Origin: a virus | Length of the DNA stretch: 64,000 nucleotides | Virus record (IMG/VR): IMGVR_UViG_3300025000_000065 | Span: 32,001-96,000 of that record | Direction: 5' to 3' (one strand) | In this document: positions 2,573 to 57,014 of the stretch, one piece after another | How the letters are laid out: the number at the start of each line of letters is the position of its first letter | Position numbering within the stretch: position 1 is the first letter of the stretch | The notes under the pieces: generated by a model | Told to the model about the DNA's origin: nothing | What the model saw: only the letters and a program-made list of their open reading frames with translations | The model's database searches: none | Made by a program: the position numbers and the translations under genes

Positions 2573-2575
2573 ATT

Positions 2576-2932: not shown

Positions 2933-3067
2933 AATACAAATAAAAATCAAAAGGAGAATAGAAATGCAAAAACTAAAAGATTTAGCTGACATGTATATGG
3001 AGACTATTATCTCAATCGTAATCATAATAATATTTTTTACTTTGATTATTCTTTTTGGAGGATTAAA

Positions 3068-35736: not shown

Positions 35737-37650
35737 TTGGCAGAACTTAATGAAAAGGCAAAGAAAATTTTCGCATTAAAATATTCGAAAAATAAAACAA
35801 AAATTTGGAGTGAAAAATGTAGAACGATTGCAAAACAAATAGCTGAAGCAGGAAAAAATTATGGATTAACAGATGAACAAATATTAGAAGTCGAAGAAGA
35901 ATATTATAAAGTCATATATGATCTACTGATTCTTCCTGGTGGAAGAATAATTGCAAATGCTGGAACAGGAATAAAAAATCTTGCAAACTGTTTTGTTTTA
36001 GCTATTCAAGATTCTAGAAGTTCCATATATGAAGCGTTAAAAGATGCTGCAGAAGTTTTTGCTATGGGTGGAGGGGTAGGATATTCTTTTTCCAATATTC
36101 GAGAAAAAGGTGCTTTAATTAATTCTACTGGCGGTGAAGCTTCTGGCGCTTTGAGTTTTATGACATTGTTTGATCAAACAGGAGAAGTAATTCAACAAGC
36201 ATCTAGGAGAGGAGCTCAGTTAGGATCTTTAATTGTTTCACATCCCGATATTGAAAATTTTATTGAATTTAAATCTAATTTAGATGTGAGAAATTCAAGA
36301 TTAATGGAAGAGTATGATCGTAATTTAAAATCTTTTGATGGGAGATTAAAAAATACAAAATATGAAAAAGTTTTAGAAAAAACTCTTTTGGATGATCAAT
36401 TAACTCATTTCAATATTTCAGTTCTACTCACAGATGATTTTATGAATGCAGTAAAAGAAAATCGTAATTGGGATTTGATTTCTCCTGCAACAGGAAAAGT
36501 TATAAAAACAGTAAATGCAAAAGATTTATTATTACGAATGGCAACTCAAGCTTGGGAATCGGGAGATCCAGGGGAATTATTTTATGATCGAATAAATGAA
36601 GATAATATGGTGAAATTTTTAGAATTAATTTATGCAACCAACCCTTGTGGTGAAGTCCCCTTATTGTCTAACGAAAGTTGTATTCTGGCTTCAATTGTTC
36701 TTTTATATATTTTTGATCAAAAAACAAAACAAATTAATTGGGATTTATTAAAGACACTTATAAAAACATTGATTAGATTTTTAGATGATGTTACAGAAGT
36801 AACAGAAGCTCCATTAGATAAAATAAACATTGTTACAAAATCATTGAGACGCTTAGGCGGTGGAGTAATGGGTTTTGCAGATTTATTAGTAGAAATGAAC
36901 ATTCCATATGATTCAGATGAAGCAGTTGAATTATCGGAATATCTTTCATGGTTTATTAATTTCCATGCTTGGGAAGAATCATTTAAATTAGCTAAAGAAC
37001 GTGGTGCTTTTGCTTACTATGATTCGGAAAAAGTCGATCTCCACGTAGTTGAAAAAGTTTTATATGATAACCCTTATGAAAAATCATATATTAATCGAGA
37101 AGAATTAAGACAAATTGGCGTTAGAAACGTTGCCTGCATCAGTCTTGCACCTACGGGGTCTATTGCTATTATTGGTGGCGTAAATAGCGCAATTGAGCCA
37201 TTTTTTGCCCTTGCCTATAAACGCAACATCACAGAGGGGGTGGGAAATATTGCTAAAGATTCTATCTTTGAAGTGAATCCTGCATTAGAAAGAAAATTAA
37301 AAGAATTTGGATATGATAAAGAGAAAATAAATAATATATTGGAATACGCTTCTTCGACAGGAACATTAACCGGATGCAAATTAGTGTCTGAGGAAGTACA
37401 AAAATTATTCAAAACATCTAATGAGATTCCTTGGAAAAGGCATGTAGATATTCAAGCTGCATGGCAAAAATATACAAGTAATGCTATATCTAAAACCATT
37501 AATATTCCTGAAGAAGCTACTGTTCAAGATATTTTTGATATTTATCTCTATATGTGGGAAAAAAGATTAAAAGGCGGAACTATTTATAGAAACAATAGCA
37601 AATCATTTCAAATCTTAGAGAAACCAGAAAATATACAAAAGGAAAAATAA
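35737..37650 (+). CDS. nrdJ: Class II (B12-dependent) ribonucleotide reductase
   Basis: PGGRI, NCFV, RRGA, TNPCGE, SCIL, APTGS, ISKTIN; no nrdB seen in window. Confidence 0.85.
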   Translation: MAELNEKAKKIFALKYSKNKTKIWSEKCRTIAKQIAEAGKNYGLTDEQILEVEEEYYKVIYDLLILPGGRIIANAGTGIKNLANCFVLAIQDSRSSIYEALKDAAEVFAMGGGVGYSFSNIREKGALINSTGGEASGALSFMTLFDQTGEVIQQASRRGAQLGSLIVSHPDIENFIEFKSNLDVRNSRLMEEYDRNLKSFDGRLKNTKYEKVLEKTLLDDQLTHFNISVLLTDDFMNAVKENRNWDLISPATGKVIKTVNAKDLLLRMATQAWESGDPGELFYDRINEDNMVKFLELIYATNPCGEVPLLSNESCILASIVLLYIFDQKTKQINWDLLKTLIKTLIRFLDDVTEVTEAPLDKINIVTKSLRRLGGGVMGFADLLVEMNIPYDSDEAVELSEYLSWFINFHAWEESFKLAKERGAFAYYDSEKVDLHVVEKVLYDNPYEKSYINREELRQIGVRNVACISLAPTGSIAIIGGVNSAIEPFFALAYKRNITEGVGNIAKDSIFEVNPALERKLKEFGYDKEKINNILEYASSTGTLTGCKLVSEEVQKLFKTSNEIPWKRHVDIQAAWQKYTSNAISKTINIPEEATVQDIFDIYLYMWEKRLKGGTIYRNNSKSFQILEKPENIQKEK

Positions 37651-39170: not shown

Positions 39171-39343
39171 TATGCAATATTTTACATATAAGGAATAATA
39201 AAAATGAAGATAGAAAAATGGATGATAATTTATTGGATAGGCGCTATTTGTGCGTTTTGTGGATATTGTCTTGAGGATTTCGCTATTATACTTGGAGGAT
39301 TATTAATTTTATTAATAGGAACTATTAAAGGAATGACAAAACA

Positions 39344-39724
39344 ATGAAAATTTATTTAGCAGGTGGACTAAGAAATCCTTGGAGAAAAACCGTAAAAATA
39401 AATGCAAGTTATCCAGATATTAAATATCTTGATCCAAATGAACACGAATTAAACATTCCATCACAATATACTAATCTAGATCTAAATATGATCGATCATT
39501 CTGATTTGGTATTTGGATATTTAGAAGAGGATAATCCAGGTGGATATAATACCTTATTCGAATTGGGATATGCAATAGGAAAAGGAATACCCATTATTTT
39601 TATAAATGAAAAACCCGATTGGGATAAATATGTGGGAATGATAAAAGAGAGTTCCTTATTTTATACAGACATATTCGAAGAAGGGGCAATGTTTCTCAGG
39701 AAGTATTTGAGGATAATAAGATAA
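39344..39724 (+). CDS. Nucleoside 2-deoxyribosyltransferase-like protein
   Basis: KIYLAG, WR, DL.MI..SD, ELGYA..KG.P. Confidence 0.8.
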   Translation: MKIYLAGGLRNPWRKTVKINASYPDIKYLDPNEHELNIPSQYTNLDLNMIDHSDLVFGYLEEDNPGGYNTLFELGYAIGKGIPIIFINEKPDWDKYVGMIKESSLFYTDIFEEGAMFLRKYLRIIR

Positions 39725-40111: not shown

Positions 40112-40617
40112 AATATTGGCTCACTACTGATACACATTTTGGTCATTCAAAAATGATGGAATATTGTAACCGACCTGAAGATTTTTCTGAAATAATATTG
40201 AAAAATCTTCGTCACTCTGTTAAACATGATGATATCTTAATACATCTAGGAGACATTTGTATTTATAATGATGTGATATGGCATTTACAACTTCTTACTG
40301 TTCCTGGTAGACATTGGTTAATTCGAGGAAACCACGATAAAAAATCTAACTCGTGGTATTTAGAAAATGGATGGAGCATGGTATGTGATCAATTTCAAGA
40401 TAAAATATTTGGAAAAACTATTATGTTTTCTCATAAGCCTGTAATCTGGAATGGAGAATATGATATAAATATTCATGGTCACTTTCATAATGTAGATCCA
40501 AACAGACACGAGAAAGAATTAGTTGCTATTAAAAACGTGTCTCAAAAATTGTTAGCTTTAGAATATACAAATTATATGCCTGTTACTTTGGAAAAATTCA
40601 TTGTTGGAAAAGCATAA
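40108..40617 (+). CDS. Calcineurin-like metallophosphoesterase
   Basis: TDTHFGH, HLGD, RGNHD, SHKP, IHGHFH. Confidence 0.88.
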   Translation: MKYWLTTDTHFGHSKMMEYCNRPEDFSEIILKNLRHSVKHDDILIHLGDICIYNDVIWHLQLLTVPGRHWLIRGNHDKKSNSWYLENGWSMVCDQFQDKIFGKTIMFSHKPVIWNGEYDINIHGHFHNVDPNRHEKELVAIKNVSQKLLALEYTNYMPVTLEKFIVGKA

Positions 40618-40648
40618 ATTAAAACCATTTTATTTTTAAGGAGAAAAA

Positions 40649-40846
40649 ATGAAAAAAGCAATATTTACTATTTATAATGAAGTATTCGTAATGAAGTTTG
40701 AGCATAATGAAAAGTTTAGTAATAAAAAGAAAAGAAAAATAGCCAAAAAAATATTAAAAATATTCGATGCAGAAGCAGAAATAAACGAAATCTTTGGATT
40801 AGATGATTTAATTATTGAAGATAAAAGAACCTCGAAAAATATTTGA
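40649..40846 (+). CDS. Hypothetical protein
   Basis: AAGGAG RBS. Confidence 0.45.
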   Translation: MKKAIFTIYNEVFVMKFEHNEKFSNKKKRKIAKKILKIFDAEAEINEIFGLDDLIIEDKRTSKNI

Positions 40847-40871
40847 CAATAAAATGATTATCGATTAGAAT
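40843..40871 (+). promoter_or_regulatory. Sigma70 promoter with no credible downstream CDS
   Basis: TTGACA-17-TAGAAT. Confidence 0.7.
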
Positions 40872-40872
40872 A

Positions 40873-41215
40873 CTACTAACAGTACCTAGAACGCCTCTAC
40901 CTAGTAAGCGTACCGATCTTGTTTTATAAAATAGGGAATTATTTTATAAAGCACGGACACCAATTATGTCTGAGGTCATACTCAATAAGGGTTGGATTGG
41001 CAACTCTTATTGTCTTGTTAGTAGAACAAAACTGGTTGTATTTCATCTTACTGGTAAGACACTACACATTTTACAAAGGAGTTTTGTGTATTTTCACACA
41101 TTTTACATATAAAAAATGTGTAATTTAGGTCACATAACCTTTAGGTTATACAACCTATTTAATAGGTAAAATCATAAAAAAATAGACCATAGAAATTAAT
41201 CCATAGTCTATTTTT
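40873..41215 (+). ncRNA. Candidate structured non-coding RNA
   Basis: Nested helices (40873-81/41016-24; 40920-33/40940-53; 40983-94/41001-12) between promoter and terminator. Confidence 0.45.
41176..41215. terminator. Probable bidirectional terminator between converging arms
   Basis: AAAAAAATAGAC...GTCTATTTTT. Confidence 0.6.
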
Positions 41216-41238
41216 AATTTATAAATATTTATTATTTA

Positions 41239-42234
41239 TTATTCAATTCTTTTTAAATATTGCTTTCCAGCATGTTTTTCTGCAACCCATCCAATATTCT
41301 TATCAAAGATCCAATTTTCATAAGGAGCAAAAGAATTATCAAATTCTACTATGTTTCCTTTTAATAATTTTTTCCCCGTAAATGTATTTGCAGAAACTCT
41401 TGGTTGTGTCCTAATATTTAATTCATCTGAAACAACCTCAAATTTTATTGTTTTACCGTCATCAATAGGATCAGTTGGATCTACAGGAGGGGGTTCAACA
41501 GGAGGTTTTGGAACAGTTGGGACTTTAAATTGAGCACAAAGTTGTTCAAAAGATCCTTTATAGTAATTCATATCTAACCCAAGACTTTCAGCACCAAAAG
41601 CTAGTCCATCCCCTTTATCACTCCACTGCCAAAATGTAAACGTATCCCAAGGTGTAAGTCTTTTCACATTATCTTCCATATAAGATTGATTGGTATAAGA
41701 AGCAATCCATAATGGATAGTTTTTCCATACGTCCGCATCTGTACCATGCTCAGCCCAAAAAAAAGCACCAGTATATATAATTGGTTTTTTACCAGAAAGT
41801 CTTTCCATCTCTACTACATAGTTCCATAAAATATCATATGCTTTTGGAGGTGGTGGATTCCAATACTCAAAGTCAATAACGGGTGGCAATTCACCAGGAT
41901 CATTTTGAATAATCGACCATGCGTATTGCGCCTGTTTTTTTGGATCAGCAATCCAATCGAGAAAATGATAAGCTCCTCTTAATAGCCCTGCCTGTTTTGA
42001 AGATTTCCAGTTATACAAAATATCTTCATCAGTCCATAAAGCTTGAGAAGATTTAATAAATACAAATTTAGCCCCCATTGCAACTGACTTTGTAAAGTCC
42101 ATTTGTTGAGCGGTGGAATTATTGTCCTGCCATTTTGAAACATCAATGCCAAGTGTATAAGCCATAGATTCCTCCATTGTTTTCCAATCATTCATAATCA
42201 ACGGTAAAAATACTGTTGTTATTTCAGTTTCCAT
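41239..42234 (-). CDS. Endolysin: GH25 muramidase, Pro-rich linker, SH3b-like domain (alternative start 42165)
   Basis: GIDVSKWQ, FVFIK, GAYHF, DFE, IYT, LWIASY, FWQWS; PKPPVEPPPVDP; LNIRTQP..GWV. Confidence 0.9.
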   Translation of the reverse strand: METEITTVFLPLIMNDWKTMEESMAYTLGIDVSKWQDNNSTAQQMDFTKSVAMGAKFVFIKSSQALWTDEDILYNWKSSKQAGLLRGAYHFLDWIADPKKQAQYAWSIIQNDPGELPPVIDFEYWNPPPPKAYDILWNYVVEMERLSGKKPIIYTGAFFWAEHGTDADVWKNYPLWIASYTNQSYMEDNVKRLTPWDTFTFWQWSDKGDGLAFGAESLGLDMNYYKGSFEQLCAQFKVPTVPKPPVEPPPVDPTDPIDDGKTIKFEVVSDELNIRTQPRVSANTFTGKKLLKGNIVEFDNSFAPYENWIFDKNIGWVAEKHAGKQYLKRIE

Positions 42235-42255
42235 TTCATTACTCCATTTTATATA

Positions 42256-42302
42256 CCCCCACATATGGGGTATATCACATCACGATACACCATATATGGG
42301 GG
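42256..42302. promoter_or_regulatory. Two NrdR-box-like 16-bp palindromes, 31 bp apart
   Basis: CCCCCACATATGGGGT (42256), ACACCATATATGGGGG (42287). Confidence 0.65.
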
Positions 42303-42344
42303 TTAAAAACCAAATAAAATCAACATTTTATTTAAAATAAAATT

Positions 42345-43121
42345 TTATCCAAAACCATATAATGAAAGTAAAGTTCCTGCTCTAAAATTGTATCGAGTTG
42401 AATATGTTCCACCTGTTATATACGCTCTAATCCTAGTTATAGGAACAGTGTTTTTCCAAACACCATTTATAATAGAAGATTGTCCAGAAACACTTGAAAA
42501 AATAGAGGATGAAAATCCCATTGCTGTTTTGTACAATCCACCAGAAGCTGAGTAATTAGGAATAATTCCAAATACGCTGCCGCTATCAGTTGCTAGATAA
42601 TTAGGAACACTTCCTATTATAACTCCTCCATTGGTATAAACTTGCAATGTATTGAGTCCTATTAAATCTCGTAACCATTGAGAAGCAATATAGTTTCCAC
42701 TATTAGCATCTCCATTAAAATCCAATCCTACATCTGCAAAAGTTCCATTTGTTCCTGCTGCTAATCCCATAATTATTAAATGTTTGAAATCTTGAGGAAT
42801 ATCAGTGAAATCAGCCTGACCCAATCCTTCAAATTCATCTATTTTTTGTAATTTTAAATTTAAGGTATCAACAGCAGAACTTAAAGTAGAAATCGAAGAA
42901 GTTATTGTGGATATATCCGAATTAATAGCGGTTATAGAACCACTAATTTGACTTCTAGCGTCCGTTAAAGAACCACTAATATCTCCTGCAAATGTATCAA
43001 TTATAGTCATATTACTAACTGATGATCCTGCTACATCATTAGTCCAACTAATAAAACTTCCACTTTGATCAGTTGTAGCGTTATACAGAATCAATCCTAA
43101 ATTTGTACTTGTAGTTGTCAT
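42345..43121 (-). CDS. Tail fibre/receptor-binding-like protein (paralog of neighbour)
   Basis: Position after Tal; Ser/Thr-rich stalk; shared C-domain ending TRYNF..GT..LYG. Confidence 0.6.
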   Translation of the reverse strand: MTTTSTNLGLILYNATTDQSGSFISWTNDVAGSSVSNMTIIDTFAGDISGSLTDARSQISGSITAINSDISTITSSISTLSSAVDTLNLKLQKIDEFEGLGQADFTDIPQDFKHLIIMGLAAGTNGTFADVGLDFNGDANSGNYIASQWLRDLIGLNTLQVYTNGGVIIGSVPNYLATDSGSVFGIIPNYSASGGLYKTAMGFSSSIFSSVSGQSSIINGVWKNTVPITRIRAYITGGTYSTRYNFRAGTLLSLYGFG

Positions 43122-43131
43122 ATTTTATTCC

Positions 43132-43920
43132 TTATTCTACACCATAAAGAGTTATTTCAGTTCCATCGACAAAATTATATCGTGTTGTATCTGATCCGCT
43201 CGAACCAAAAATTCTTATTCTGTCTATAGGACTAGCTGATTGCCAAACACCACCCGATATATTACTCTTTCTCCAAACATCCTGTGTTACAGAGCCAAAT
43301 CCAAGTGCTGATTTTTTTAAAACTTGACTTCCAGAATAATTTGGTATAACTCCAAAAACAGAACCACCATATCCATAATTATCACTTCCAGAAACACTAC
43401 TTAAAATTAAATGACCATTAACATCATAATAAGAAAGTGTTTCAGTAGGTGCTGGTATTGTAGAGCCTGATCTTTCCCAATTTACACTTATGTAACTTGA
43501 AGATGTTGAGACTCCATTAAAATCGATTCCGATAAAAGAAAACATTCCTGGACTTTGAGATGCAGCATTTCCCATTAAGATTAAATGTTTATAATCTTGA
43601 GAAATTGAACTGAAATCGGCTTGTCCAGATCCACTAAAAATACCAAGTATTTCAAATCTGCTAACGGTATCAGTTATTTGAGATCCACTTGCTTCGACTT
43701 GAGCAGAGGCACTTGTTATAGAACCCGATATAGACAAATCAGAACCCGAATAGCCGGTAATTAAATTAGTAATATTTAATACTAATTGTCCTGAAAAAAT
43801 ATCAATTTTGGTCATATTACTATCGAATATTCCATTCATCTGTTTTCTTAGTTCATCAAACCCTATATCTCCATCGGATTTTATATTATATGTAAATAAA
43901 TTTAAATTAGTTGTAGACAT
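43132..43920 (-). CDS. Tail fibre/receptor-binding-like protein
   Basis: Paralogous to 42345; 8 SGS motifs. Confidence 0.6.
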   Translation of the reverse strand: MSTTNLNLFTYNIKSDGDIGFDELRKQMNGIFDSNMTKIDIFSGQLVLNITNLITGYSGSDLSISGSITSASAQVEASGSQITDTVSRFEILGIFSGSGQADFSSISQDYKHLILMGNAASQSPGMFSFIGIDFNGVSTSSSYISVNWERSGSTIPAPTETLSYYDVNGHLILSSVSGSDNYGYGGSVFGVIPNYSGSQVLKKSALGFGSVTQDVWRKSNISGGVWQSASPIDRIRIFGSSGSDTTRYNFVDGTEITLYGVE

Positions 43921-43921
43921 A

Positions 43922-44371
43922 TTAAACTCCACTTTCAATTATTAAGTCAAATGTTATAAAATTTATTCCTTCAGGTAAAATTCCAGATGATGGACTTCCG
44001 CTAGGCAATGTGTGATTTACAACATTTAAATCAGATAAAATTTTTAATGATAAATTAGAAAACATTAATGGATCATAGTATTTTAAAATTCCGGTTCTAA
44101 CAACATGATCCTTTCCATAAAAATATAGAGTATTATTGCTACAAGCCGATATGTCAAAAAATAACCTTTCTAAATCTTCTGGCTGATCAATTAACAACGT
44201 ACTTCCGCTAGGCAATGTATGGTTTATGGTGCTTAATGCAGCAAGGGTTTTTAATGATAAATTAGAAAACATCAATGGATCATAATATTTTAAAATTCCA
44301 GTTCTAACAACATGATCAGTTAAGGAAATATATAAATTCATACTCGCAGAAGTAGAAATTGGAGTAGCCAT
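43922..44371 (-). CDS. Small tail-associated protein with internal 39-aa duplication
   Basis: DHVVRTGILKYYDPLMFSNLSLK..NHTLPSGS occurs twice. Confidence 0.6.
   Translation of the reverse strand: MATPISTSASMNLYISLTDHVVRTGILKYYDPLMFSNLSLKTLAALSTINHTLPSGSTLLIDQPEDLERLFFDISACSNNTLYFYGKDHVVRTGILKYYDPLMFSNLSLKILSDLNVVNHTLPSGSPSSGILPEGINFITFDLIIESGV
43994..44317. repeat. 117-bp imperfect direct repeat, period 207 bp
   Basis: 43994-44110 and 44201-44317. Confidence 0.85.
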
Positions 44372-44372
44372 A

Positions 44373-44720
44373 TTATCTTATCCTTTTTGTTATAACTAAA
44401 ATTCCTTGTGCTGGAACTACTTCAACACCATCTTCAAAAACAATAGTTAATTGATGAGTATATTTTCCATCAGATAAATTTTTTGTATCAACTGAAGAAA
44501 GAATAATTTCAAAACTGTTTGTAGTAATTATATTTGCTGTTTTTGTTAATATTGCATAATCCGTACCAAATGGAGCTAAATTCCACGTACAATCAGCGGC
44601 GCTAATATCTATTGGATCGCCATCTTCATCATAAATTACAAATTCTAAAGTATATGTTGTTCCAGCAACAAAACTAATTTCAGATACATTATTTAAATTT
44701 GAAAAAGTAACATAATTCAT
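44373..44720 (-). CDS. Baseplate upper protein (BppU N-terminal-like)
   Basis: AGTT..LEF..DEDGDPIDIS..DTKNL..GKYTHQ. Confidence 0.55.
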   Translation of the reverse strand: MNYVTFSNLNNVSEISFVAGTTYTLEFVIYDEDGDPIDISAADCTWNLAPFGTDYAILTKTANIITTNSFEIILSSVDTKNLSDGKYTHQLTIVFEDGVEVVPAQGILVITKRIR

Positions 44721-44732
44721 TTTTTCACCTTT

Positions 44733-46853
44733 CTAAGTTATCAATGGAACATATTCAAACAACACGCCATCTCCAACTTGAATTTCATCAATCATAGTTG
44801 CGCCACTAGAAGAAACTTCAGTATAATGAACATCTTTAATTTGGGTAATTCCATTTACATAAATTCTACTTGAATTTGTTATATAATTTCCACTTATAGA
44901 AATATAACTTCCAGATTGACCAGTTAAATCTTCAATGACTGTTACAGAACTTCCTTCGGCTAAACCACTACCACTAATGAAAACTCCGTTTCTAAAAGAA
45001 ACAACGCCTCCTCCAGCAGTAACAATATCTCTACTAATACCAACACCACCATCTATGGTATATATTGTAGGTTCTCGTAAAACAACACCTTCTTGATTTA
45101 AAATAAAATTTGACGAACCCGTTGTAGAATTTATATTTGTTATATTCAAAGTAGGAGTTGCTGTAATTGCTCCTTTAATATTTTCAGCAACTATTCCATA
45201 AGAAGAAATTCCAGATGGAGTCACTACATTATCTATAATAATAGGTTTATTTGTGCTCCAATCATTATAAGCATCTTTTGTAAAGCTAACATCCGAAGCA
45301 ACTTTTAAAGTTTTCTGAATATAATCAGATAAAATAAAACTAGAATCATTTATTCTTTGTTTATTTGAAATAACTATTGAGAAATCAGTTGGATCTTCAT
45401 AATTAAAACTATATTCTAAAAGTGTAGCAGACAACAATAAATTTTCATCTGTTTCTATAGTTATTTGATCTCCTAAAACAAACTGACCTGTTATAGAAGA
45501 AAATTCAAAAATTGTAGGAAAGTTTATTGTATTAAGCGTAATTTGATATCTAGGAACAGCCATTTTACTAAGAACAACACTGGCAGCATTATACAATTCT
45601 AAACTTTGAGCATTAATTTCTGCATTACTCATTAAACTTGTAATGATTATGTTTTCATTTTTATACGTATTTTCATATATAAAATTTGAAAGTTTTAAAT
45701 ATTGATCTGTTGTAAAATTTGATGTATTGGTAAAAGATAATTCATCATTAATATTACTCATAATCAACGTTGTAGAAGAAATATTGTTTTGTATATTGAT
45801 AATAACGAGATTTTGATTGTTTATTAAAATTTCTTGTTGATCAATTAACGCTTCTATTTCTGTGGTATCTAATCCTTGTTCACTTCTTACGTCATAAGTT
45901 TGTTGATAAGCCGCCAATTGTGATTGAAGTTCTACTAATGTAGTTTGTTCTGTTGCTAATTCAGTTTGATAATCGGTCAATAAAACAGAATATGCAAAAT
46001 AATCAGTTTCATATAATGTAATTTTATTCTCCCATGCGGTTATTGCATCTACTAAATCTTGAGACATCCAATTAGAATTTTTATAATAAGAAAAATCATA
46101 TATCTTATTTGTTCCTAAAGGATTCACATTTCTAATAGTTAAATTTCCACCACCGTAACAGTATAATGCGGTTGTTATTTCTTCACTAATTTCATTATAA
46201 TCCTGATCTTTTATTAAATTATCAAAGGACAAATAAATATCCGTTGCCGTTATGTCTCTTTCAACATCCAATATTTTTATCGATCTATTTAAAAAATCAA
46301 AAATAAAAAAACAATTATAAGCAGTTGAAGCATCTGATGTAAGAAATTGATACAAATTTGTATCTGTAACATTAAACGTTCTGTATAAATCAATTAATGT
46401 TGAATCTATTTGAGAAACACTCCAATTTGGAGCATAAAAAAGAATCAATCCTACCAATGTATCGGTACTTGTTGGATCATCTACATCATATAATTTATAC
46501 GTTCCCGTCAATGTATTTATTCTCTTAAAAACAAGTTCAGATTCTCTGCTAAATCCTTTAATATGCTTAATGGGAGTTCCCCCATCGTCACTTTTTTCAG
46601 GATCTACAATTATAAAATATCCTATTCCATCTAACAAAACAAGTCTCTTAGATTGAAGATAATCAAAACCTGGAAGTTCAACTCCATCAATATATTTTGG
46701 AAAATCAAATTCTATTTCACTTTGAGCATTAAATCTTAGTATTGGTCTAACGTTATAAGCAGATTCCAAAGAATAAAGTTGTTCCTCATCTGGATTACAT
46801 AAAACAATTGATGGACGTTCAGACTGATTATAAACATCAAATGATACCTGCAT
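44733..46853 (-). CDS. Baseplate hub / Tal-like tail tip protein
   Basis: Follows Dit; RFNAQSEIEF, IRNVNPLGT..IYDFSYY; coiled coil. Confidence 0.7.
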   Translation of the reverse strand: MQVSFDVYNQSERPSIVLCNPDEEQLYSLESAYNVRPILRFNAQSEIEFDFPKYIDGVELPGFDYLQSKRLVLLDGIGYFIIVDPEKSDDGGTPIKHIKGFSRESELVFKRINTLTGTYKLYDVDDPTSTDTLVGLILFYAPNWSVSQIDSTLIDLYRTFNVTDTNLYQFLTSDASTAYNCFFIFDFLNRSIKILDVERDITATDIYLSFDNLIKDQDYNEISEEITTALYCYGGGNLTIRNVNPLGTNKIYDFSYYKNSNWMSQDLVDAITAWENKITLYETDYFAYSVLLTDYQTELATEQTTLVELQSQLAAYQQTYDVRSEQGLDTTEIEALIDQQEILINNQNLVIINIQNNISSTTLIMSNINDELSFTNTSNFTTDQYLKLSNFIYENTYKNENIIITSLMSNAEINAQSLELYNAASVVLSKMAVPRYQITLNTINFPTIFEFSSITGQFVLGDQITIETDENLLLSATLLEYSFNYEDPTDFSIVISNKQRINDSSFILSDYIQKTLKVASDVSFTKDAYNDWSTNKPIIIDNVVTPSGISSYGIVAENIKGAITATPTLNITNINSTTGSSNFILNQEGVVLREPTIYTIDGGVGISRDIVTAGGGVVSFRNGVFISGSGLAEGSSVTVIEDLTGQSGSYISISGNYITNSSRIYVNGITQIKDVHYTEVSSSGATMIDEIQVGDGVLFEYVPLIT

Positions 46854-46854
46854 A

Positions 46855-47646
46855 CTATCCTCCTAAACGTCTGATAAATTGATATGTAATGTTTAATTGT
46901 GTTATATCGCCTGTAAGTTCAAGATTGTTCAACCCATCTTTAAATCTCATAAAATTTTTATTAAAATTAGACAGTCTTCGATATCCTAAATTTGATTCAA
47001 TAATTCCTAAGTCAGAATTTACGGTTATTACTTCATATGGAGATAAACTTGTAAATTCAAATTCTCTATCAGAATCGCTCGCATTAACAATAGAAATATC
47101 GCCACCAGAAGCATTCATTGTAAAAGAAATGTTAGGCTTATTGTATCCCTCATAATGTGAATTATTATAAAAAACAATAGAACTCCCTGAAGGAGCACTT
47201 GTATAATTATATGTTGTTGTTCTAGGGTATGTTCTAACCCATTGAGAATCACAAATACATGTTCCAGAAAATCCCCTTATCAAATTTCCAGATTTTATAA
47301 TCTGTGGATTTGTAAAAATTGCTCTAAAATAAATTCCTTCCATATCTGGTTGAGCTATTGCTAAATCTTTATAGTTCAATGACCCAAACAACCATTTTTG
47401 AATATAACTTGCATCTAAAGCAGTTATTTCATCTGGAGAAAAAAAAGTTACAGGAAAAGATAAACTGGAACTATATTTTACACCATAAAAATATGGAACA
47501 GGTTTTCTAAAAATAAAATCTTGAATTATTTCTACAGTTCCACTTCCGTTTGAACTTATTGTTCCAACGTCACTTGATGCAATCTGAAGATTATAAGATT
47601 CACTTACTTCTCCACCATACACAAAATTTTTTGCATAAAAACCCAT
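46855..47646 (-). CDS. Distal tail protein (Dit)
   Basis: Immediately downstream of TMP; WLF, NFNKNF.RF.DG.N.L. Confidence 0.7.
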   Translation of the reverse strand: MGFYAKNFVYGGEVSESYNLQIASSDVGTISSNGSGTVEIIQDFIFRKPVPYFYGVKYSSSLSFPVTFFSPDEITALDASYIQKWLFGSLNYKDLAIAQPDMEGIYFRAIFTNPQIIKSGNLIRGFSGTCICDSQWVRTYPRTTTYNYTSAPSGSSIVFYNNSHYEGYNKPNISFTMNASGGDISIVNASDSDREFEFTSLSPYEVITVNSDLGIIESNLGYRRLSNFNKNFMRFKDGLNNLELTGDITQLNITYQFIRRLGG

Positions 47647-47707
47647 ACTAATTTTCCTCCTTTCTTAATTATTAGGGGAGATTTTCTCTCCCCTATTTTT
47701 TAAACCA

Positions 47708-50401
47708 TTAACCATAAATTGATGCGACATCTCTCACGCTTCCTTGTCTAACAAGAGTAGAATTGATTTCTTTTATAACATCTCTAGCAATGTCTTTTAT
47801 TTTTGGAATTGTTTTTTCAATTACATCACCTTGAACCGTAATTAAACTTTCAATATTTAAACCTCCAGAACCTTGAGCCTTATTAATAATGTTAGCAACA
47901 CGAGGAATCATCTTTAAGGTTTTCAATATATCATTGTTATTCATTACCTCTTCACCAACAAGAAGTTTAGAAAGAATTTCACCTGGTAATGTTCTAACTC
48001 CACCTACTGCACCAGAAGATAAACCACTATGATGAGTAGGAAGTGTTTCTGTAGATACAACTGGGGAAACTCCACCATATAATGCATCTGCTAAATTTCC
48101 GTATTTTAATAATGCATCATAAGCTTCATTCCATGCTTCGACAACATCTGTTACAATTCCAGATCCATATTCAGAATTCCAATCTATTAATGATTGATAT
48201 AAATCAGGAGCTTGTTCCCCAATTCTATCTAATGCATCTTGAGCAATTTGACCAGTTTTATCTAAGTATTCATCAATAGCAGAAACAGCCTCTTCAATTA
48301 TTGCAATTTGAGAATCGATGTTTTCTTTATATAGCTCATATTCTTGATCCAGTGCTTCTTCCTGCAAATCATAAGATCTATCTCTTTGAGTTTGTTCTAA
48401 GTCTTTTTGAGCATCTGCTAATTCTTCAGCGAGTTCTAACTGTCTTGCTTTAGACTCAGCGGAAGTATCAAGTGCCAAAATTGCCATTTCAGATTGAATC
48501 TGAGCAATAGTTTTAGTTTTATCCTCTAGTTCTTCTTGATATTCTACGGATTCTTGTTCTGCTCTTAAGATTTCTTTTTTGGCATCTATAATTTCTTCAT
48601 AAGCGTCAAGTTGTGCTTCTAATCCATCTATTTGATCTTTTAAAGCATCTTTTCTTGCGTTTTGCTCCGCTTTAATTAAACTAATGACTAGATTGTGAAG
48701 ATCTTTAAGTGTTTTTATTTCTTCTTTTGCAGCAGCAGAAGATCCACCACCGCCACCGCCTCCAGCACCACCACCTGAATATCCAGGAAAAGCAGATCGA
48801 GTTGGAACATTTGTAGGAGGTGGATTGAACGGCAAAGAAACGCCATTTAGAATATCATCACCCATTGGTTCTGTACTTTGATTAGAAATAACATTTCCAC
48901 TTGTAGTAACAACAAAATTTAAATAATAATCTCCACTTATCGCATTTGCAGCATTTCCAATATTTAAAATGTTACCAATTGCTATTGCAGCAGCTTCATA
49001 AGATCCATTTGCTAAATCAATCATGGCTTGATCCATTGAACCCAATACTCTTACAGTTTCCGATCCCATGAATCCCCAAGCTGTCATCATATCAGCAGCC
49101 ATAGTATAGGCTACATTTTTAGCTTCATTGCCTAAAGTAGATAATTGTATTCTTTGAATAAATGTACTAACGATAGATGCCTGAAGAGATTTCTCATAAG
49201 CATCAGCGGTTTTTAAAATATCCTGTTCAACATTATATAATTCATATTGTAGATCACCCAATTGAGTTAATTGCTCATCTGATAATGTTGGTTGTTCTGA
49301 AAGTAATCGTATTTCTTCTCTTAATTCTGCCGCTTGAATTCCTGCTTTTTCTTGTTTTTCGTGATAAGAATCAAATGCTTTTCCAAATGAATCATCGAGT
49401 ATATATTGCAGATTATCAAATGCTTGAGATAATTCTTCTGTGCTATCAAAGATTTGACCATGCGCACGTCTCCAAGCTGTTACCCAAGTATCTAATTCTG
49501 CTTTCGTAGCATTAAATAAACCGAGTTCAGCATCAGTAAGAGTTCCAAAATCTTCAGCGGTTTTTACTATAACCTTTCCTCCGCTGCTTACAACTCTTAT
49601 TAACTCACCGTTTTCACCGATGGTATATCCAGCAATTTCCGCTGCTCTTTCTACTGCTTCAATATAATCATTATAATTACCTGTTGTATCTTTTAGTGTG
49701 GAAATTACTTCTTTCAATCCTTGATCAAGTATTTTTTGTTTATTTACAAAAAGATCAGCTATAATTCCTGCTCTATTATGAGCTTCATTAACGGAATCCA
49801 CCATTTTTTTGTATTCACCCATTACTTGTTCGGTGGTCTTAATTTCTTCACCTAAATTTTTAAAAGCATTAGACCAAGCATTAGTTGTATTTTCTAATCC
49901 TAAATCTTGCTGTTTCTTAACTGTTTGTTGATATGTTATAATTACAGCAGTTAAAGCAACAATTGCGATTTGAAAAATTGAAACCCAAGATATAGTTGTT
50001 TTTAATAAAAGTTGCAAACTAACTAATGAAAAAGAAAATCCTTGTATAGCCGTAGTTGCACCCATAATTTTAATAATAAAATTTGCCATTGCTTGGGCAC
50101 TTAAAACTCCAACCAAACCAATAAGAGATTCTAAAATAGGAATTAGTCCACCCATAGAATCAATTGCTTCAACAGAAGAAATTCCTAAGTCTAAAAAGAA
50201 TTTAATGACATCATCATCGATTGCTTTTTGCCATAGGTTTTCCATTGCTGCCTTTAATGTATTTGCTTTTCCCTCTATGGAATCCATGTAAATTTTATAT
50301 CGTTCTGTAGCCAATCCAACAGAATGAAGTTGTTGTTCTTGAGCTTCTAGTACCTGGTTGTAGTTTTCCATCAAAATTAAAAAATTTTCGCGTTGCCGAA
50401 C
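47708..50401 (-). CDS. Tape measure protein, exon 2
   Basis: Frame resumes VRQRENFLILMENY; hydrophobic segments, long helices, Gly-rich linker, HHSG. Confidence 0.85.
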   Translation of the reverse strand, partial: VRQRENFLILMENYNQVLEAQEQQLHSVGLATERYKIYMDSIEGKANTLKAAMENLWQKAIDDDVIKFFLDLGISSVEAIDSMGGLIPILESLIGLVGVLSAQAMANFIIKIMGATTAIQGFSFSLVSLQLLLKTTISWVSIFQIAIVALTAVIITYQQTVKKQQDLGLENTTNAWSNAFKNLGEEIKTTEQVMGEYKKMVDSVNEAHNRAGIIADLFVNKQKILDQGLKEVISTLKDTTGNYNDYIEAVERAAEIAGYTIGENGELIRVVSSGGKVIVKTAEDFGTLTDAELGLFNATKAELDTWVTAWRRAHGQIFDSTEELSQAFDNLQYILDDSFGKAFDSYHEKQEKAGIQAAELREEIRLLSEQPTLSDEQLTQLGDLQYELYNVEQDILKTADAYEKSLQASIVSTFIQRIQLSTLGNEAKNVAYTMAADMMTAWGFMGSETVRVLGSMDQAMIDLANGSYEAAAIAIGNILNIGNAANAISGDYYLNFVVTTSGNVISNQSTEPMGDDILNGVSLPFNPPPTNVPTRSAFPGYSGGGAGGGGGGGSSAAAKEEIKTLKDLHNLVISLIKAEQNARKDALKDQIDGLEAQLDAYEEIIDAKKEILRAEQESVEYQEELEDKTKTIAQIQSEMAILALDTSAESKARQLELAEELADAQKDLEQTQRDRSYDLQEEALDQEYELYKENIDSQIAIIEEAVSAIDEYLDKTGQIAQDALDRIGEQAPDLYQSLIDWNSEYGSGIVTDVVEAWNEAYDALLKYGNLADALYGGVSPVVSTETLPTHHSGLSSGAVGGVRTLPGEILSKLLVGEEVMNNNDILKTLKMIPRVANIINKAQGSGGLNIESLITVQGDVIEKTIPKIKDIARDVIKEINSTLVRQGSVRDVASIYG

Positions 50402-51910
50402 TTTTCTGTTGCTTTCACACCGCGAAGCATGTTACTGACCATTTTACAATGGCGATTAAGTATTTCTACTTAATTCTGCAATTTCTTTTTGTTATAGTTG
50501 CAGAGCAGACCATATCTTTTTCTTGTTTTATACAAGAAAGATGACGCGGGAATTTATGTCACCACAAACACCCAATTGGTCGTTACGGATTCTCAAAAAT
50601 TATAAATAATGACTAAAAATTGTGTGTAGTTTAGTCAAATCTTTTCTAAAAATTTCTATTAATTTAATATTATTATCTTTACAAATATTTCTTTTTTCTT
50701 TCATTCTCTCAAAATAAAAAATTTTTTCTGGCATTCCAAAAAATTCTACAAATATATTTTTTTCAATTACCCAATCAACTCGTTTTAATCCACATCTATC
50801 ATCTTCACAATACTTATTATACATTTCCTCTTTTTTATAATTTATATCATTATCTATTAAAAAATTTGTTATTGTCAATTCAGACTTGGAAAAACATAAA
50901 TCTTTATTTGTAGAATAATATGTATTAGATTCTCCAAATAAAGAAGAATTTGAATCTAAATTAGCTAACCCACATGCATTTCGATATCCATCAAATCGTC
51001 TTTCAAATGTTTTTACAGATGGCAATCCATAAAGAACAAGTTCGCTACCATAAGGAGTTCTTCCTAAATATTCTCCTAATTCTTTTAGTTGTTCTATCAT
51101 TTGATCTGCATCATACCATTTAACACTTTTTTCTTTAGTTTTATGAAATCCTAATTTAAGTGCCATAGTTCTTATGCTTTCCGGTTTTCTATTAAGAAAA
51201 TATTTTTCACTCAAGTATTTATTAGTATAATGAGGATAAACGGTTTTTAATAATTTTATATCTTCGTTTGTCCAAGTTTTATTTACTTTCAATCTTAAAT
51301 TATTTATTTTTGCATAAACACCAGATAAAGTTCGATTTAATTTTTTAGCAATTTCTTCATAAGATAATGTATCATAATTTTTTATTAAAAAATCAATTTC
51401 ATCAGGTGAATAATCTCTGTTTTTTTCAACAATTATATTCAACTCAGAAGATTTATGACGAATTGAATCAATATTATTATTTTCTAAATTTTTCATTAAT
51501 AACTCATAATTTCCACTAGGATATAATTCTTTTAATATTTTAATCCTATCATCCGTCCACTGATATCTTCCAATTCCCCAAGAAGAAATTAAATTTAATA
51601 TTGTTGAAGAACATCTATTTACTTTTTTACATATTTCGTTTAATGGAATCTTATTATAATTATCTTTAATATAATCTAATTCATTAGGCGTCAATGGTTT
51701 CTTTTTCATACTGTTTAATTATCCTTTTAAAAATATTCGCTACACATCAAATATTTTTTAATAATTTATTTTTTTTTATAATTTTTGAGTCTTTCCTCGG
51801 AATTGTCTGCTTCCAGAGTTTTTCCGATATGGTCATCTTCTGAGATTTTTATTCTAATTATAGAAAATGCAATCTCTATATGTTACCATATATTCTGGCA
51901 TTCTATTTTT
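50402..51910 (-). mobile_element. Group I intron in tape measure gene with ORF in the P6a loop
   Basis: P1 CUGGU/GCCAG with U.G; P3 AGAUGAC/GUCAUCU; P4 UCGGAA/UUCCGA; P6a CUCAAAAAU/AUUUUUGAG; P7 GACCA/UGGUC with AAGAUA; P9 hairpins. Confidence 0.9.
50600..51709 (-). CDS. Intron-encoded putative homing endonuclease (helical repeats plus PD-(D/E)XK/Vsr-like nuclease)
   Basis: Repeats WTDDRIKILK / YSPDEIDFL / WTNEDIKLLK; LGRTP; SKSE..VDW..FVEFFG. Confidence 0.7.
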   Translation of the reverse strand: MKKKPLTPNELDYIKDNYNKIPLNEICKKVNRCSSTILNLISSWGIGRYQWTDDRIKILKELYPSGNYELLMKNLENNNIDSIRHKSSELNIIVEKNRDYSPDEIDFLIKNYDTLSYEEIAKKLNRTLSGVYAKINNLRLKVNKTWTNEDIKLLKTVYPHYTNKYLSEKYFLNRKPESIRTMALKLGFHKTKEKSVKWYDADQMIEQLKELGEYLGRTPYGSELVLYGLPSVKTFERRFDGYRNACGLANLDSNSSLFGESNTYYSTNKDLCFSKSELTITNFLIDNDINYKKEEMYNKYCEDDRCGLKRVDWVIEKNIFVEFFGMPEKIFYFERMKEKRNICKDNNIKLIEIFRKDLTKLHTIFSHYL

Positions 51911-53095
51911 ACCAGCAATAGCATTTGCAACCGCACTTTGCTCTATTTCATTCATCGTAGACCATTTTTCAGCAATTTCATCCATTACATCACCCATAGG
52001 TCTAAATGAAGTAGCGGTATCTCTTAATCTGATATTGACTAAACCCAATGCTCTTTCAACATCGTTAATATTTGTTTTATCATCTTCAAACATTTTTCCA
52101 AGTTTAATGTTTTCTAAACGAGCGAACATCGTCTTCATACTTTGACCTATCGACTCAGCGGAGCGGCGTGAAACGCTCGAAATCGTAGCAATGTAACTTG
52201 TCAACTCATCAAAACTAACTCCTGCTTGTTGAGCAGAAGCAGCAGAATATTGTAGTGCTGTGGCAATTTCATTAGCCGAGGTTGCCATCCGATTATCCAA
52301 ATCGATTATTTTATCAACAACCAAACTAGCATCCTCAGCCTCTAACTTAAATCCATTCAAAGTAGCTGTTAGTTTTTCAGTTGAATCTGCGGATTCCATG
52401 TTTCCTAACTTACTCAACATCAAAGTTGACTTCATTAATTCAGAGGTTTCTTCAATTGTCTTTCCTTGCCTGAACCATTCGAGGCTTCCCTGTGCCACCT
52501 GAATTGTTGTAGCACCCATTTCTTTTGCAAGTTTATTATATTCAACCGCTAATCTGTCAACTTCATCGGCAGTCATTCCCGTAACAATTTGAACATTTGT
52601 TAACTCTTTGTTCAAATCTTTAATATATTGTATTCCTTCTTCTATTTTTCGAAGACTTCCATAAATAGCTTGTGTTGCAAGAAACCATATTGCAACTTTT
52701 TTAATAGCAACTTCAAGCATGGATGTAAATCCATAACCATCTTTAGTCGTATTTTTCATAGAAGCACCGACTTTAGTAACAGAAGTTCTTAAATCATCAA
52801 AACTTCCCCTTACGTCTTGAATAGAAGCACCACCCCTTTGAGAAAAACTAGTAATGTTATCTTGAAGAACCTTTAACGATGCTTGAACGTCTGCGTTATT
52901 AAAAATATCTGGAGATTTAAATTGCATTCTTGCAATTTGATTATTCCACTGTTTAACATAAGAATCAATATCTTTCTGCCCCATATTGATACTTGTTGTT
53001 ATTTTAATATTTTTAGTTTTTCTATCTAATTTATCTTGAAGACCTGTAACATCAGGTTCAATGCCAACTATAATATTATAACCACCATTAGCCAT
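51911..53095 (-). CDS. Tape measure protein, exon 1 (TP901-type core)
   Basis: GGAGG RBS; LTNVQIVTG, EWFRQG, LTATLNGF, IGQSMKTMFAR; ends AIAG. Confidence 0.88.
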
Positions 53096-53133
53096 TAATA
53101 ACCCTCCTTTCAACCTCTAGAAAAGAGGCAATT

Positions 53134-54129
53134 TCATAAACCAAACATTTTATCTATAATTTCGTCTGTATGATCTTTTGAATAATCTAAAGTAGTTTTT
53201 GGATCGGAATGATGAAGATAGACTTGAACTTGTTCCAAACTAAATTTTTTAGGAACTCCATCTTTATCTAAAATTCTTTTATCTTCTCCTTGTAATAAAC
53301 ATTCACATCTCGAATGTCGATAACTATGGGGAAAAATATTCATTTGCTTTCCTTCAATTTCACTCAAAATTTCTCTTATTTTTAAAACCCAATCATAAAT
53401 CATTTCATAAGAGGCTTCTCTTTTTTTATCACCACTACCAACAATCCATAAAGATTCAACATTATCTTCTCCACGTTTATCCAACCAAAGTCTTATTAAT
53501 TCCTTGGTATCGTCTAGGTAAATTAATGGAAATATCTTTCCTCTTTTTCCTATGACTGCGTTAGTCTTATTACTATTTAAAAGATTGTATTTTTTTATTT
53601 GAGCAATTTCATTTCTTCTTGCTCCACTATCAAACATCATCATATGGAGTAAAGCAAGTTGAATTTCCCCCATTTCCAATAACTTTTCTTTTACCCTTAT
53701 GATTTGATCAAAAGTCATAAAAAAAGAATCTTCATCAGTTCTAACAGGCTCTTTCGGTAGTCCTTTTATTTTTTGAGCCTGATTAATATCATATTCATAT
53801 TCATCAGAATCTTCAATATAAGAAAGCATACTTCTACAACAACTCATTACTCTATTTACTCTAGCATTTGACATTTTTAAATCATCACTTAACCAAATGC
53901 TAAGTTTTCTAAAATCTCTTTTTCCTAATTCTAATAAATTTCTATTTCCGCAAAATCTTTTTACAAAAATATTAATTATTCTGAGATCATTTTCATATTG
54001 TTTTATTGTACTTGCTTTCATTTTTCGTTGCTGATATTCTTCTAAGAAGTCCTGAACAATATCTTTGTTTTCTATATTTATGTGGGAATATTCTTCATCT
54101 GTGTATATTCTATTATATACTCTGCTCAC
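53134..54129 (-). CDS. Tyrosine recombinase within the tail operon
   Basis: SGARRNE, GKRGK, HSYRHS, LHHSD..TT.DY. Confidence 0.88.
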   Translation of the reverse strand: MSRVYNRIYTDEEYSHINIENKDIVQDFLEEYQQRKMKASTIKQYENDLRIINIFVKRFCGNRNLLELGKRDFRKLSIWLSDDLKMSNARVNRVMSCCRSMLSYIEDSDEYEYDINQAQKIKGLPKEPVRTDEDSFFMTFDQIIRVKEKLLEMGEIQLALLHMMMFDSGARRNEIAQIKKYNLLNSNKTNAVIGKRGKIFPLIYLDDTKELIRLWLDKRGEDNVESLWIVGSGDKKREASYEMIYDWVLKIREILSEIEGKQMNIFPHSYRHSRCECLLQGEDKRILDKDGVPKKFSLEQVQVYLHHSDPKTTLDYSKDHTDEIIDKMFGL

Positions 54130-54138
54130 ATTCCCTCC

Positions 54139-54594
54139 TTATAAAATTCCTTGCTGTTTGAAATAAGTTAATCCAACAGCTAAAGAATCAGATTCATCAT
54201 CATTATTAATTACTACATCTTTCCATTGTTTTAAAACAGATTTTTTAACTTGTTCTTTATCTGCTTTACCACTTCCTGTAACGGTTTTTTTTACTGTAGT
54301 TGCAGGAATATAAATTTGTTCAGACTTCCATAATAAACAATTTATTACACCAACACATCGATAGATCTGTTGGGTAACTGTCCCAAACTTGGAAAACCCC
54401 TTTTCGATAATGACTAAATCAAATTCATATCGTTTTTTTAAATTAATAAAGAAATCTGCAATTTTTTTTAATCTAATTTGTGTTAAATCTTTTGGTGAAG
54501 TGGGAACACTAAAAACTTCAATTACATTTCCCTTTTCATCAAAAATAGATCCACCAGTATTCACCAATGAAATATCTAATGCTAAAATATACAT
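54139..54594 (-). CDS. ruvC: RuvC-like Holliday junction resolvase
   Basis: LALDISLVNTG, IIEKG, VKK.VTGSGKADKEQV, DESDSLAV. Confidence 0.85.
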   Translation of the reverse strand: MYILALDISLVNTGGSIFDEKGNVIEVFSVPTSPKDLTQIRLKKIADFFINLKKRYEFDLVIIEKGFSKFGTVTQQIYRCVGVINCLLWKSEQIYIPATTVKKTVTGSGKADKEQVKKSVLKQWKDVVINNDDESDSLAVGLTYFKQQGIL

Positions 54595-54602
54595 TTTTTA
54601 TA

Positions 54603-54680
54603 CTCCCATATATGCCGATATACATCACACATACCCCCATATATAGGGGTATAAAATTTCTTGACCCCCATATGTGGGGG
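54603..54680. promoter_or_regulatory. Three NrdR-box-like palindromes, 31-bp period
   Basis: CTCCCATATATGCCGA (54603), CCCCCATATATAGGGG (54634), CCCCCATATGTGGGGG (54665). Confidence 0.65.
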
Positions 54681-54722
54681 TATAAAATCCAATAAAATGT
54701 GAATTTCATTATTTCTAAAAAA

Positions 54723-54757
54723 ATAGAACACGCTCGGAGATCCGAAACGTGTTCTAT
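54723..54757 (-). terminator. Intrinsic terminator after holin
   Basis: ATAGAACACG..TCGGA/TCCGA..CGTGTTCTAT followed by U-tract on - strand. Confidence 0.65.
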
Positions 54758-54775
54758 ATCCAATGTTTTCGTCTA

Positions 54776-56919: not shown

Positions 56920-57014
56920 GTAATAACTCCTCCTATAAAATTTTTAGGGGAGATTAAACCCCCATATATTGAGAGAGATTTATTTCTCTCTCAATATACA
57001 TGTTATTATCAAAA

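Follow-up and report, generated by a model that had tools for sequence, protein, structure and literature searches.

The window, i.e. the whole stretch of 64,000 nucleotides under study, comprises bases 32001-96000 of a virus record of 111,969 bp (93 % complete according to CheckV), derived from an uncultured phage of groundwater origin with a G+C content of 28 %. Genes on the plus strand, up to approximately 41.1 kb, serve replication and nucleotide metabolism, the latter being represented by nrdJ, dNMP kinase, 5'-nucleotidase, a GMP-reductase-like protein and MazG; nrdJ encodes a class II ribonucleotide reductase (35737-37650, plus strand; PF02867, 4.2e-126). The structural block lies on the minus strand, between 64 and 41.2 kb, and ends with the gene for a GH25 endolysin (41239-42234, minus strand; Pfam PF01183, 7.1e-32; phrog_291, 2.6e-31). 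The tail genes (tape-measure, Dit-like and others; 42345-53113, minus strand) are closely packed behind an integrase-family (tyrosine recombinase-like) gene (53134-54129, minus strand; PF00589, 1.1e-8; phrog_1, 1.7e-29), and because of this close packing they probably form one unit with it. The recombinase gene is preceded by a gene for a RuvC-like Holliday-junction resolvase (54139-54594, minus strand; PF02075, 1.1e-9; phrog_159, 6.5e-29).

Several minor features of this region were recorded. The tape-measure gene is interrupted by an intron carrying an HNH(-repeat) gene, and within 50402-54594 the resolvase and integrase-like genes stand between the tail-chaperone region and a tape-measure gene. 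No tRNA genes were found in the window. Sequencing runs recorded as containing this stretch are four DNA runs, all of groundwater and from a single study, which may be the origin of the record, and no RNA run is among them. A simple hydrophobicity scan of 40600-42350 recognised no holin beside the endolysin, and the hydrophobic small frames near this gene occur only on the opposite strand (39204-39347 and 40919-41128). Two hairpins and a half box, CCCCCATATATTGAGA (plus strand, 56959), follow the major capsid gene at 56920-57014 and are probably an attenuator or terminator rather than an operator.

Two clusters of phased palindromes

Two 16-bp palindromes, CCCCCACATATGGGGT (proximal, 42256-42271) and ACACCATATATGGGGG (distal, 42287-42302), lie in front of the endolysin gene, 31 bp apart from start to start and separated by a 15-bp linker (42272-42286). 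The proximal box ends 21 nt upstream of the endolysin ATG (42234), and the ribosome-binding site GGAG (42242-42245) is placed 7 nt before the ATG. The two boxes of this pair, called here cluster A, are mutually inverted copies with 19-nt arms, 89 % complementary. An earlier note on this DNA had described the pair as exactly 31 bp apart with the nearer palindrome about 20 bp from the endolysin start, had credited both palindromes with the positions C4, A6, A8, T9, T11 and G13 of the NrdR box, and had seen no such box upstream of nrdJ. The coordinates and the spacing were confirmed, all six core positions are present in each box, and nrdJ proved to be boxless on its upstream side, the nearest six-of-six boxes being intragenic (32300 and 37545).

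A perfect copy of another palindrome, AATAAAA-N6-TTTTATT (42313-42332), invariant in three relatives, is located 10 bp upstream of the distal box in the sense of transcription. The record contains approximately 30 dispersed copies of this element, most of which coincide with gene boundaries, and a ribosome-binding site often follows at a distance of 10-35 nt (examples by window position: 6185, 7963, 22580, 42313, 58866, 69639 and 74554), and such placement ahead of gene starts would also fit a transcription signal. The second cluster of boxes, described below, has a degenerate copy at the equivalent place. Only two copies of the AATAAAA palindrome have boxes between them and the ribosome-binding site, which would agree with a standard module of gene starts to which an operator has been added.

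The second cluster, cluster B, was absent from the earlier note and consists of three boxes in front of the resolvase gene, at 54603, 54634 and 54665, each 31 bp from the next. The middle box CCCCCATATATAGGGG (54634-54649) and the distal box CCCCCATATGTGGGGG (54665-54680) retain six of six core positions. The proximal box, TCGGCATATATGGGAG on the minus strand (54603-54618), is degenerate: it retains five of six, being devoid of one of the critical C4/G13 pair, and it overlaps the ribosome-binding site GGGAG. Clusters A and B are homologous beyond the boxes, as the linker, 15 bp in both, and approximately 20 bp upstream are similar. The core 16-mer consensus of the boxes is CCCCCATATATGGGGG and the extended consensus is tATACCCCCATATATGGGGGTATa. 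Since cluster B heads the RuvC-like/recombinase/tail unit, the coupling to the host dNTP sensor that the earlier note suggested for lysis, if real, is wider than lysis; the interpretation of the palindromes as NrdR boxes given in the earlier note was borne out on every sequence test run.

Just upstream of cluster B an intrinsic terminator, a long hairpin followed by T7 (54719-54761, minus strand), closes the head-gene unit. Its fold of -20.3 kcal/mol (z -5.23) was equalled in 0 of 200 shuffles, and it is kept in the relatives L049-L051. The boxes themselves were considered as intrinsic terminators and rejected: nothing resembling a terminator was seen at cluster A on the minus strand, and the only flagged box of cluster B is flagged on the non-coding strand, the real terminator being separate. 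On the coding strand, the search for sigma-70-type promoters was negative at both clusters, as were attempts to place -35 and -10 hexamers by hand, so the boxes cannot be positioned relative to a promoter.

The earlier note had suggested checking the conservation of position in relatives, and the boxes with their 31-bp period are indeed kept there. Cluster A is present, with the 31-bp period, in L126 and in L001 and L003, the endolysins of the latter two being only 56 and 43 % identical, respectively; in each of the three the proximal box is kept. L002 starts within the endolysin gene and was left out of this comparison. In alignment A1 the boxes and a 45-bp AT-rich stretch upstream, to which the AATAAAA palindrome belongs, are invariant, and the 15-bp linker has diverged. 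In the metagenome contig L181 the boxes are again followed by a GH25 gene. L003 carries a GIY-YIG homing-endonuclease-like gene (2240-2983) between the tandem boxes and the endolysin gene; having been inserted after the boxes, it would share the boxed control region.

Cluster B has three boxes in L049 and two each in L050 and L051, and it is not present in L052, whose resolvase is 43 % identical. The 31-bp period is kept in L049, L050 and L051 as well, and the degenerate proximal box is invariant in these three. The three-box and two-box forms differ by an indel of exactly 31 bp: the segment 54650-54680, containing the distal box, is shared by the window and L049 and missing in L050 and L051, where the degenerate proximal box makes up half of the sole pair. 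The segment converts a good-plus-weak pair to a good-plus-good pair with a spare box.

The boxes also stand out statistically. The word CCATATATGG with up to 1 mismatch has 10 matches against 1.97 ± 1.49 expected (0 of 100 shuffles reached 10), and the 19-mer ACCCCCAYATATGGKGTAT with up to 3 mismatches has 4 against 0.02 expected. With 300 dinucleotide-preserving shuffles of the record as the null model for core 16-mers and their pairs, single 16-mers with the six core positions were at the chance level in the 111,969-bp record (45 vs 38.1 ± 6.4), and six-core pairs 30-33 bp apart numbered 2 in the whole record, with 0.073 expected and 2 of 300 shuffles reaching 2. These two tandems, the only ones in the record, are clusters A and B. 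Their C5 and G5 runs are conspicuous against the background of 28 % G+C.

Resemblance to NrdR operators of cells and to boxes of other viruses

NrdR is a zinc-ribbon and ATP-cone repressor, a sensor of DNA building blocks whose tetramer occupies two boxes spaced by about three turns of the helix, and has been described as specific to ribonucleotide reductase genes. According to two studies (PMC12051234, PMC13584703), its site is composed of two boxes of 16 bp each, joined by a 15-16-bp linker (14-17 bp being tolerated), the conserved box positions are C4, A6, A8, T9, T11 and G13, the critical ones among them being C4 and G13, and the tetramer with ATP and dATP binds DNA, in contrast to the oligomers formed with ATP alone. 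The second of them (PMC13584703) adds that native boxes are 63-100 % AT between C4 and G13 and that C5 with G12 in both boxes lowers the affinity ten-fold for the S. coelicolor NrdR and five-fold for the E. coli NrdR. According to another study (bioRxiv 10.1101/2025.03.28.645925), paired boxes in E. coli and P. aeruginosa occur only at reductase operons; single NrdR-like boxes at dnaA (Shewanella) and topA (Pseudomonas) are quoted there from Rodionov and Gelfand 2005, and topA did not respond to the loss of nrdR.

The phage sites share with the operators of S. coelicolor (nrdRJ, nrdAB), E. coli (nrdAB, nrdHIEF, nrdDG) and L. monocytogenes the box length, the core and the AT-rich centre. They are paired 16-bp boxes with a 15-bp linker, and the six core positions are complete in four of the five boxes; positions 5-12 of the consensus read C-ATATAT-G, 6 of 8 being A/T, at the low end of the published AT range. 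Unlike in these model operators, positions 3, 5, 12 and 14 are C or G, a choice that lowers the affinity of two model NrdRs, and one phage cluster has three phased boxes. Unlike at bacterial reductase operators, the genes downstream are those for the GH25 endolysin and for the RuvC-like resolvase with its recombinase and tail unit, not a reductase gene or nrdR. As nrdJ is also boxless, the phage sites are not canonical members of the regulon, but would rather be the same kind of site with new targets. The Shewanella dnaA and Pseudomonas topA boxes are likewise outside reductase promoters and near genes of DNA metabolism, but they are single, whereas the phage boxes are paired or tripled in phase, the arrangement that the tetramer needs. 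No description of NrdR operators on late or lysis genes of phages was found in the literature searched.

The earlier note had also proposed scoring the boxes against nrd promoters of Chloroflexota. A matrix was built from 30 nrdR-adjacent boxes of Anaerolineae, picked by the six core positions and spacing only, and the four good phage boxes took ranks 1-4 of 111,954 positions: the distal and middle boxes of cluster B were first and second, and the proximal and distal boxes of cluster A third and fourth. Their scores, 16.8-20.0, compare with a training median of 18.7; the degenerate box of cluster B had rank 116.

The same word was then sought in cellular genomes with a strict tandem pattern (CCCC-N-AYATRT-N-GGG, 16-18 bp, CCC-N-AYATRT-N-GGG) in one genome for each of 185,579 species. 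It gave 25 loci, 21 of them labelled Chloroflexota, mostly Anaerolineae, against a chance expectation of approximately 0.1 by rough arithmetic. In 7 of the 25 loci nrdR, encoding the zinc ribbon and ATP-cone, directly adjoins the boxes, and in 6 of these 7 it is followed by a class II or III reductase gene. In genomes G001, G002 and G004 every letter of the box before nrdR agrees with CCCCCATATATGGGGG, so this word is the NrdR operator of some Chloroflexota. The Chloroflexota nrdR-nrdJ and nrdR-nrdD operators (L029, L030, L031, L035, L037, L038 and L043) have this word or 1-2 changes from it with a period of 31-32 bp and, like the phage sites, lie just upstream of the ribosome-binding site; they belong to cellular genomes of 46-66 % G+C and precede nrdR, whereas the phage has 28 % G+C. 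Taken together, sequence, spacing, conservation and identity with real operators give good support to the reading of the phage palindromes as NrdR-type operators.

Of 151 sampled Chloroflexota genomes, 142 have NrdR itself, a tally that includes the unpublished G149, used solely for this count. Strict palindromic tandems were almost absent upstream of nrdR in 29 phylum-level and 30 class-level loci, because both boxes had to be 6/8 symmetric, and this test was replaced by the six-core one, which found tandems in 14 of 30 Anaerolineae loci vs 1 of 29 loci sampled across the phylum. The Anaerolineae nrdR-box consensus, CCACAATATATTGTGG, is unlike the phage word at positions 3, 5, 12 and 14, and the boxes in this promoter sample are mostly CCAC...GTGG, not CCCC...GGGG. 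The exact CCCC...GGGG dialect therefore belongs to some of the lineages and not to the whole class.

Genomes with CCCC-type nrdR operators have further tandems before dnaA (L117, L119) and near DnaA-box-like repeats ahead of a GAF histidine kinase gene (L117, L118). These sites, seen in Chloroflexota genomes, are at 1944-1990 and 4170-4731 in L117, 1708-2020 in L118, 1879-1926 in L119 and 2502-2723 in L151; they include tandems on the flanks of arrays in which a ATGTTCATAAC-like word is repeated, ahead of the GAF histidine kinase gene. Their position suggests NrdR-type sites at or near replication-control regions. Other tandems precede genes for a MazG fusion (L120), transaldolase (L123), Ham1 (L192), and formate-tetrahydrofolate ligase and PolA (L028, L048). 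In the groundwater Chloroflexota genome G001 a single CCCCCAGATATGGGGG box (L121, 1929-1944) was seen approximately 250 bp upstream of a muramidase-SH3 gene (2197-3339), an arrangement comparable, on the cellular or prophage side, to the endolysin with its boxes in the phage.

The dialect also occurs in mobile elements, where tandems accompany ParM-like genes (L041, L140, L144), an integrase gene by a tRNA (L032), a serine recombinase gene (L142) and capsid and scaffold genes (L016); a protein-primed polymerase is also among the contexts. Among the 59 metagenome loci hit by the strict pattern, nrdR or a reductase gene is nearby in 3 and dnaA in 1, and 55 have none of these. Thirteen metagenome loci have a G+C content of up to 40 % (17 with up to 42 %) and mostly resemble relatives of this phage group. 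One metagenome contig carries an array of CCCCACATGTTGGG every 15 bp (L138, 1066-1140), a related word in a different arrangement. Exact 16-mer matches in viral contigs (20) were discarded as evidence, being close to the chance estimate for a collection of this size (rough arithmetic), and only multi-copy loci were used. NrdR may have a wide regulon in these lineages that is widely exploited by mobile elements; alternatively, the mobile elements may possess a factor whose site looks like that of NrdR. The former reading is favoured because tandems in the classical dialect were found in viral contigs.

These tandems were obtained by scanning viral contigs for ACAC...GTG present twice, 15-19 bp apart, which gave 106 stretches of the classical dialect (ACAC...GTGT) from unrelated contigs. 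In the 80 stretches inspected out of the 106 (L194-L273), a reductase gene lay within 2 kb in 1 case, and nrdR or nrdD within 2 kb in none, with nrdJ of the window as the positive control. The 64 frames first met next to the boxes, in 44 of the 80 loci, include those for MazG (4), P22-type portal, large terminase, scaffold protein, NAD-dependent ligase, Cro/CI-type regulators and head protease, and no reductase was among them. Candidate paired NrdR-type boxes at non-reductase genes are, judged by their sequence, common in viral contigs, and differences between host NrdRs would explain why unrelated phages carry such pairs in different dialects. Approximately 30 of the classical-dialect stretches are one family with a 14-bp linker.

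Other readings of the boxes

The boxes could also be operators of a late regulator, activating or repressing, whose gene belongs to the phage or to mobile elements, the NrdR-like sequence and three-turn phasing being only a resemblance. This is unlikely, though it is the strongest of the rivals. Most dialect tandems are away from reductase genes and accompany genes of phage-like or plasmid-like character, in 55 of the 59 metagenome loci and in 10 of 10 viral loci, their neighbours include the ParM-like, serine recombinase, protein-primed polymerase, and capsid and scaffold genes mentioned above, and the window itself encodes one HTH protein and small zinc-ribbon proteins. Such a regulator would, however, need a site that by chance duplicates the six core positions of NrdR boxes, their length of 16 bp, their linker of 15 bp and the very 16-mer that precedes nrdR in Chloroflexota, and no candidate gene was found travelling with the boxes. 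The classical host dialect carried by unrelated viral contigs is also a better fit to host NrdR than to one phage factor.

Another explanation is that the palindromes act in RNA, as hairpins of the 5' leader that stabilise messages, provide processing sites or mask the ribosome-binding site. The leaders do fold well (cluster A -29.1 kcal/mol, z -3.67; cluster B -36.9 kcal/mol, z -2.51), and the fold of cluster B pairs GGGAG, but any pair of palindromic operators folds in this way. The differences between box copies break pairs without compensation (C5 opposite A12, C7 opposite A10), which favours a protein site read on DNA and argues against an RNA helix. In addition, the 31-bp indel alters the fold yet preserves the phase on DNA, and the same words are found, in either orientation, ahead of nrdR genes and next to replication genes. 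A role in RNA is regarded as very improbable.

Rated marginally lower still is the proposal that the boxes are recombination sites for the integrase-family protein encoded nearby, acting with the RuvC-like resolvase, with 9-bp inverted arms and an ATATAT spacer. The extended consensus, tATACCCCC-ATATAT-GGGGGTATa, is shaped like the core site of a tyrosine recombinase, cluster B is directly upstream of the RuvC-like and integrase-family genes, and in L032 and L142, too, tandems are followed by integrase or recombinase genes. Core sites of this type have inverted arms around an asymmetric spacer of 6-8 bp and are used singly. Recombination between clusters A and B would, however, delete or invert the 12-kb tail module, the symmetric spacer gives no direction, and phased tandems with free linkers would not be expected of a core site. 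Moreover, the same sites precede nrdR, dnaA, MazG and Ham1 genes with no adjoining recombinase.

Chance resemblance in an AT-rich genome, with which the number of single six-of-six cores would agree, is refuted by the excess of tandems, by C5/G5 runs at 28 % G+C and by conservation in several relatives.

A possible role of host NrdR in late expression

Neither an ATP-cone nor an NrdR zinc ribbon is encoded in the 93 %-complete phage record, so it would be host NrdR that reads the sites. The explanation that we consider fairly probable, starting from the sites and the genes behind them, is that host NrdR with ATP and dATP represses both late units until dATP falls. The phage would in this way probably tie its last steps to the nucleotide supply of the host. 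As long as dATP is plentiful, NrdR would occupy the sites just upstream of the ribosome-binding sites and either keep both units off or block read-through; the first unit, behind the terminator, would comprise the resolvase, recombinase and tail genes and the second the endolysin gene. Phage DNA synthesis would then drain dATP and NrdR would leave the DNA, as it does at host reductase promoters, its release being followed by junction resolution, tail production and lysis. The phage nrdJ, having no box, would escape the NrdR feedback. Hundreds of copies of the phage genome with two operators each may also titrate NrdR so that the host reductase genes are derepressed; the idea of decoys put forward in the earlier note is compatible with the repression model and not an alternative to it.

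Data on another phage are relevant here. During infection of pneumococcus, as reported in PMC6755750, host operons with NrdR sites are up from 10 min and are the most induced host genes at 50 and 90 min, which suggests that NrdR comes off its sites as lytic infection proceeds.

Several observations were counted against the NrdR model, namely the C5/G12 dialect, the degenerate box of cluster B, the lack of a recognisable promoter, the CCAC...GTGG form of most boxes in the Anaerolineae promoter sample, the distance of most dialect tandems from reductase genes and the restriction of pairs to reductase operons in E. coli and P. aeruginosa, the two species studied best. The same applies to base composition, since the phage has 28 % G+C vs 44-66 % in genomes with this dialect, a gap of at least 16 points. 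A host among the Chloroflexota is also opposed by the nearest isolated relatives of the phage, which infect Bacillota. A search of 401 Chloroflexota genomes for the phage capsid protein was negative, had no positive control and is uninformative, and a protein-cluster search with nrdJ returned mixed bacterial and viral clusters with no host signal.

Host repressors are known to read the state of the cell on phage promoters, as in prophage genes controlled by LexA. Compared with LexA-type control, the signal for the phage described here would be the dATP/ATP state perceived through NrdR and not DNA damage. In a broader form, the proposal would be that phages widely use host NrdR as a clock or checkpoint, boxes in the host dialect holding late units until dATP is drawn down; this we put forward tentatively, as possible but rather doubtful. 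If true, completion of virions and lysis would be timed by exhaustion of DNA precursors, late genes and lysis thus being set by precursor supply and not only by holin clocks or phage regulators, and the amplified sites would strip NrdR from host reductase genes. NrdR control of the lysis gene and of the resolvase and tail unit would also mean that a phage can make use of this sensor to gauge the dNTP state of the infected cell. Further cases of such a checkpoint would be the viral contigs, numbering more than 100, in which classical boxes are paired at MazG, portal, terminase, scaffold, ligase and Cro-like genes, and their non-reductase pairs suggest a general layer of phage-host wiring, undescribed in the literature searched. 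The box dialect may in addition serve as a host-prediction mark for uncultured phages, and in this phage it points to Chloroflexota.
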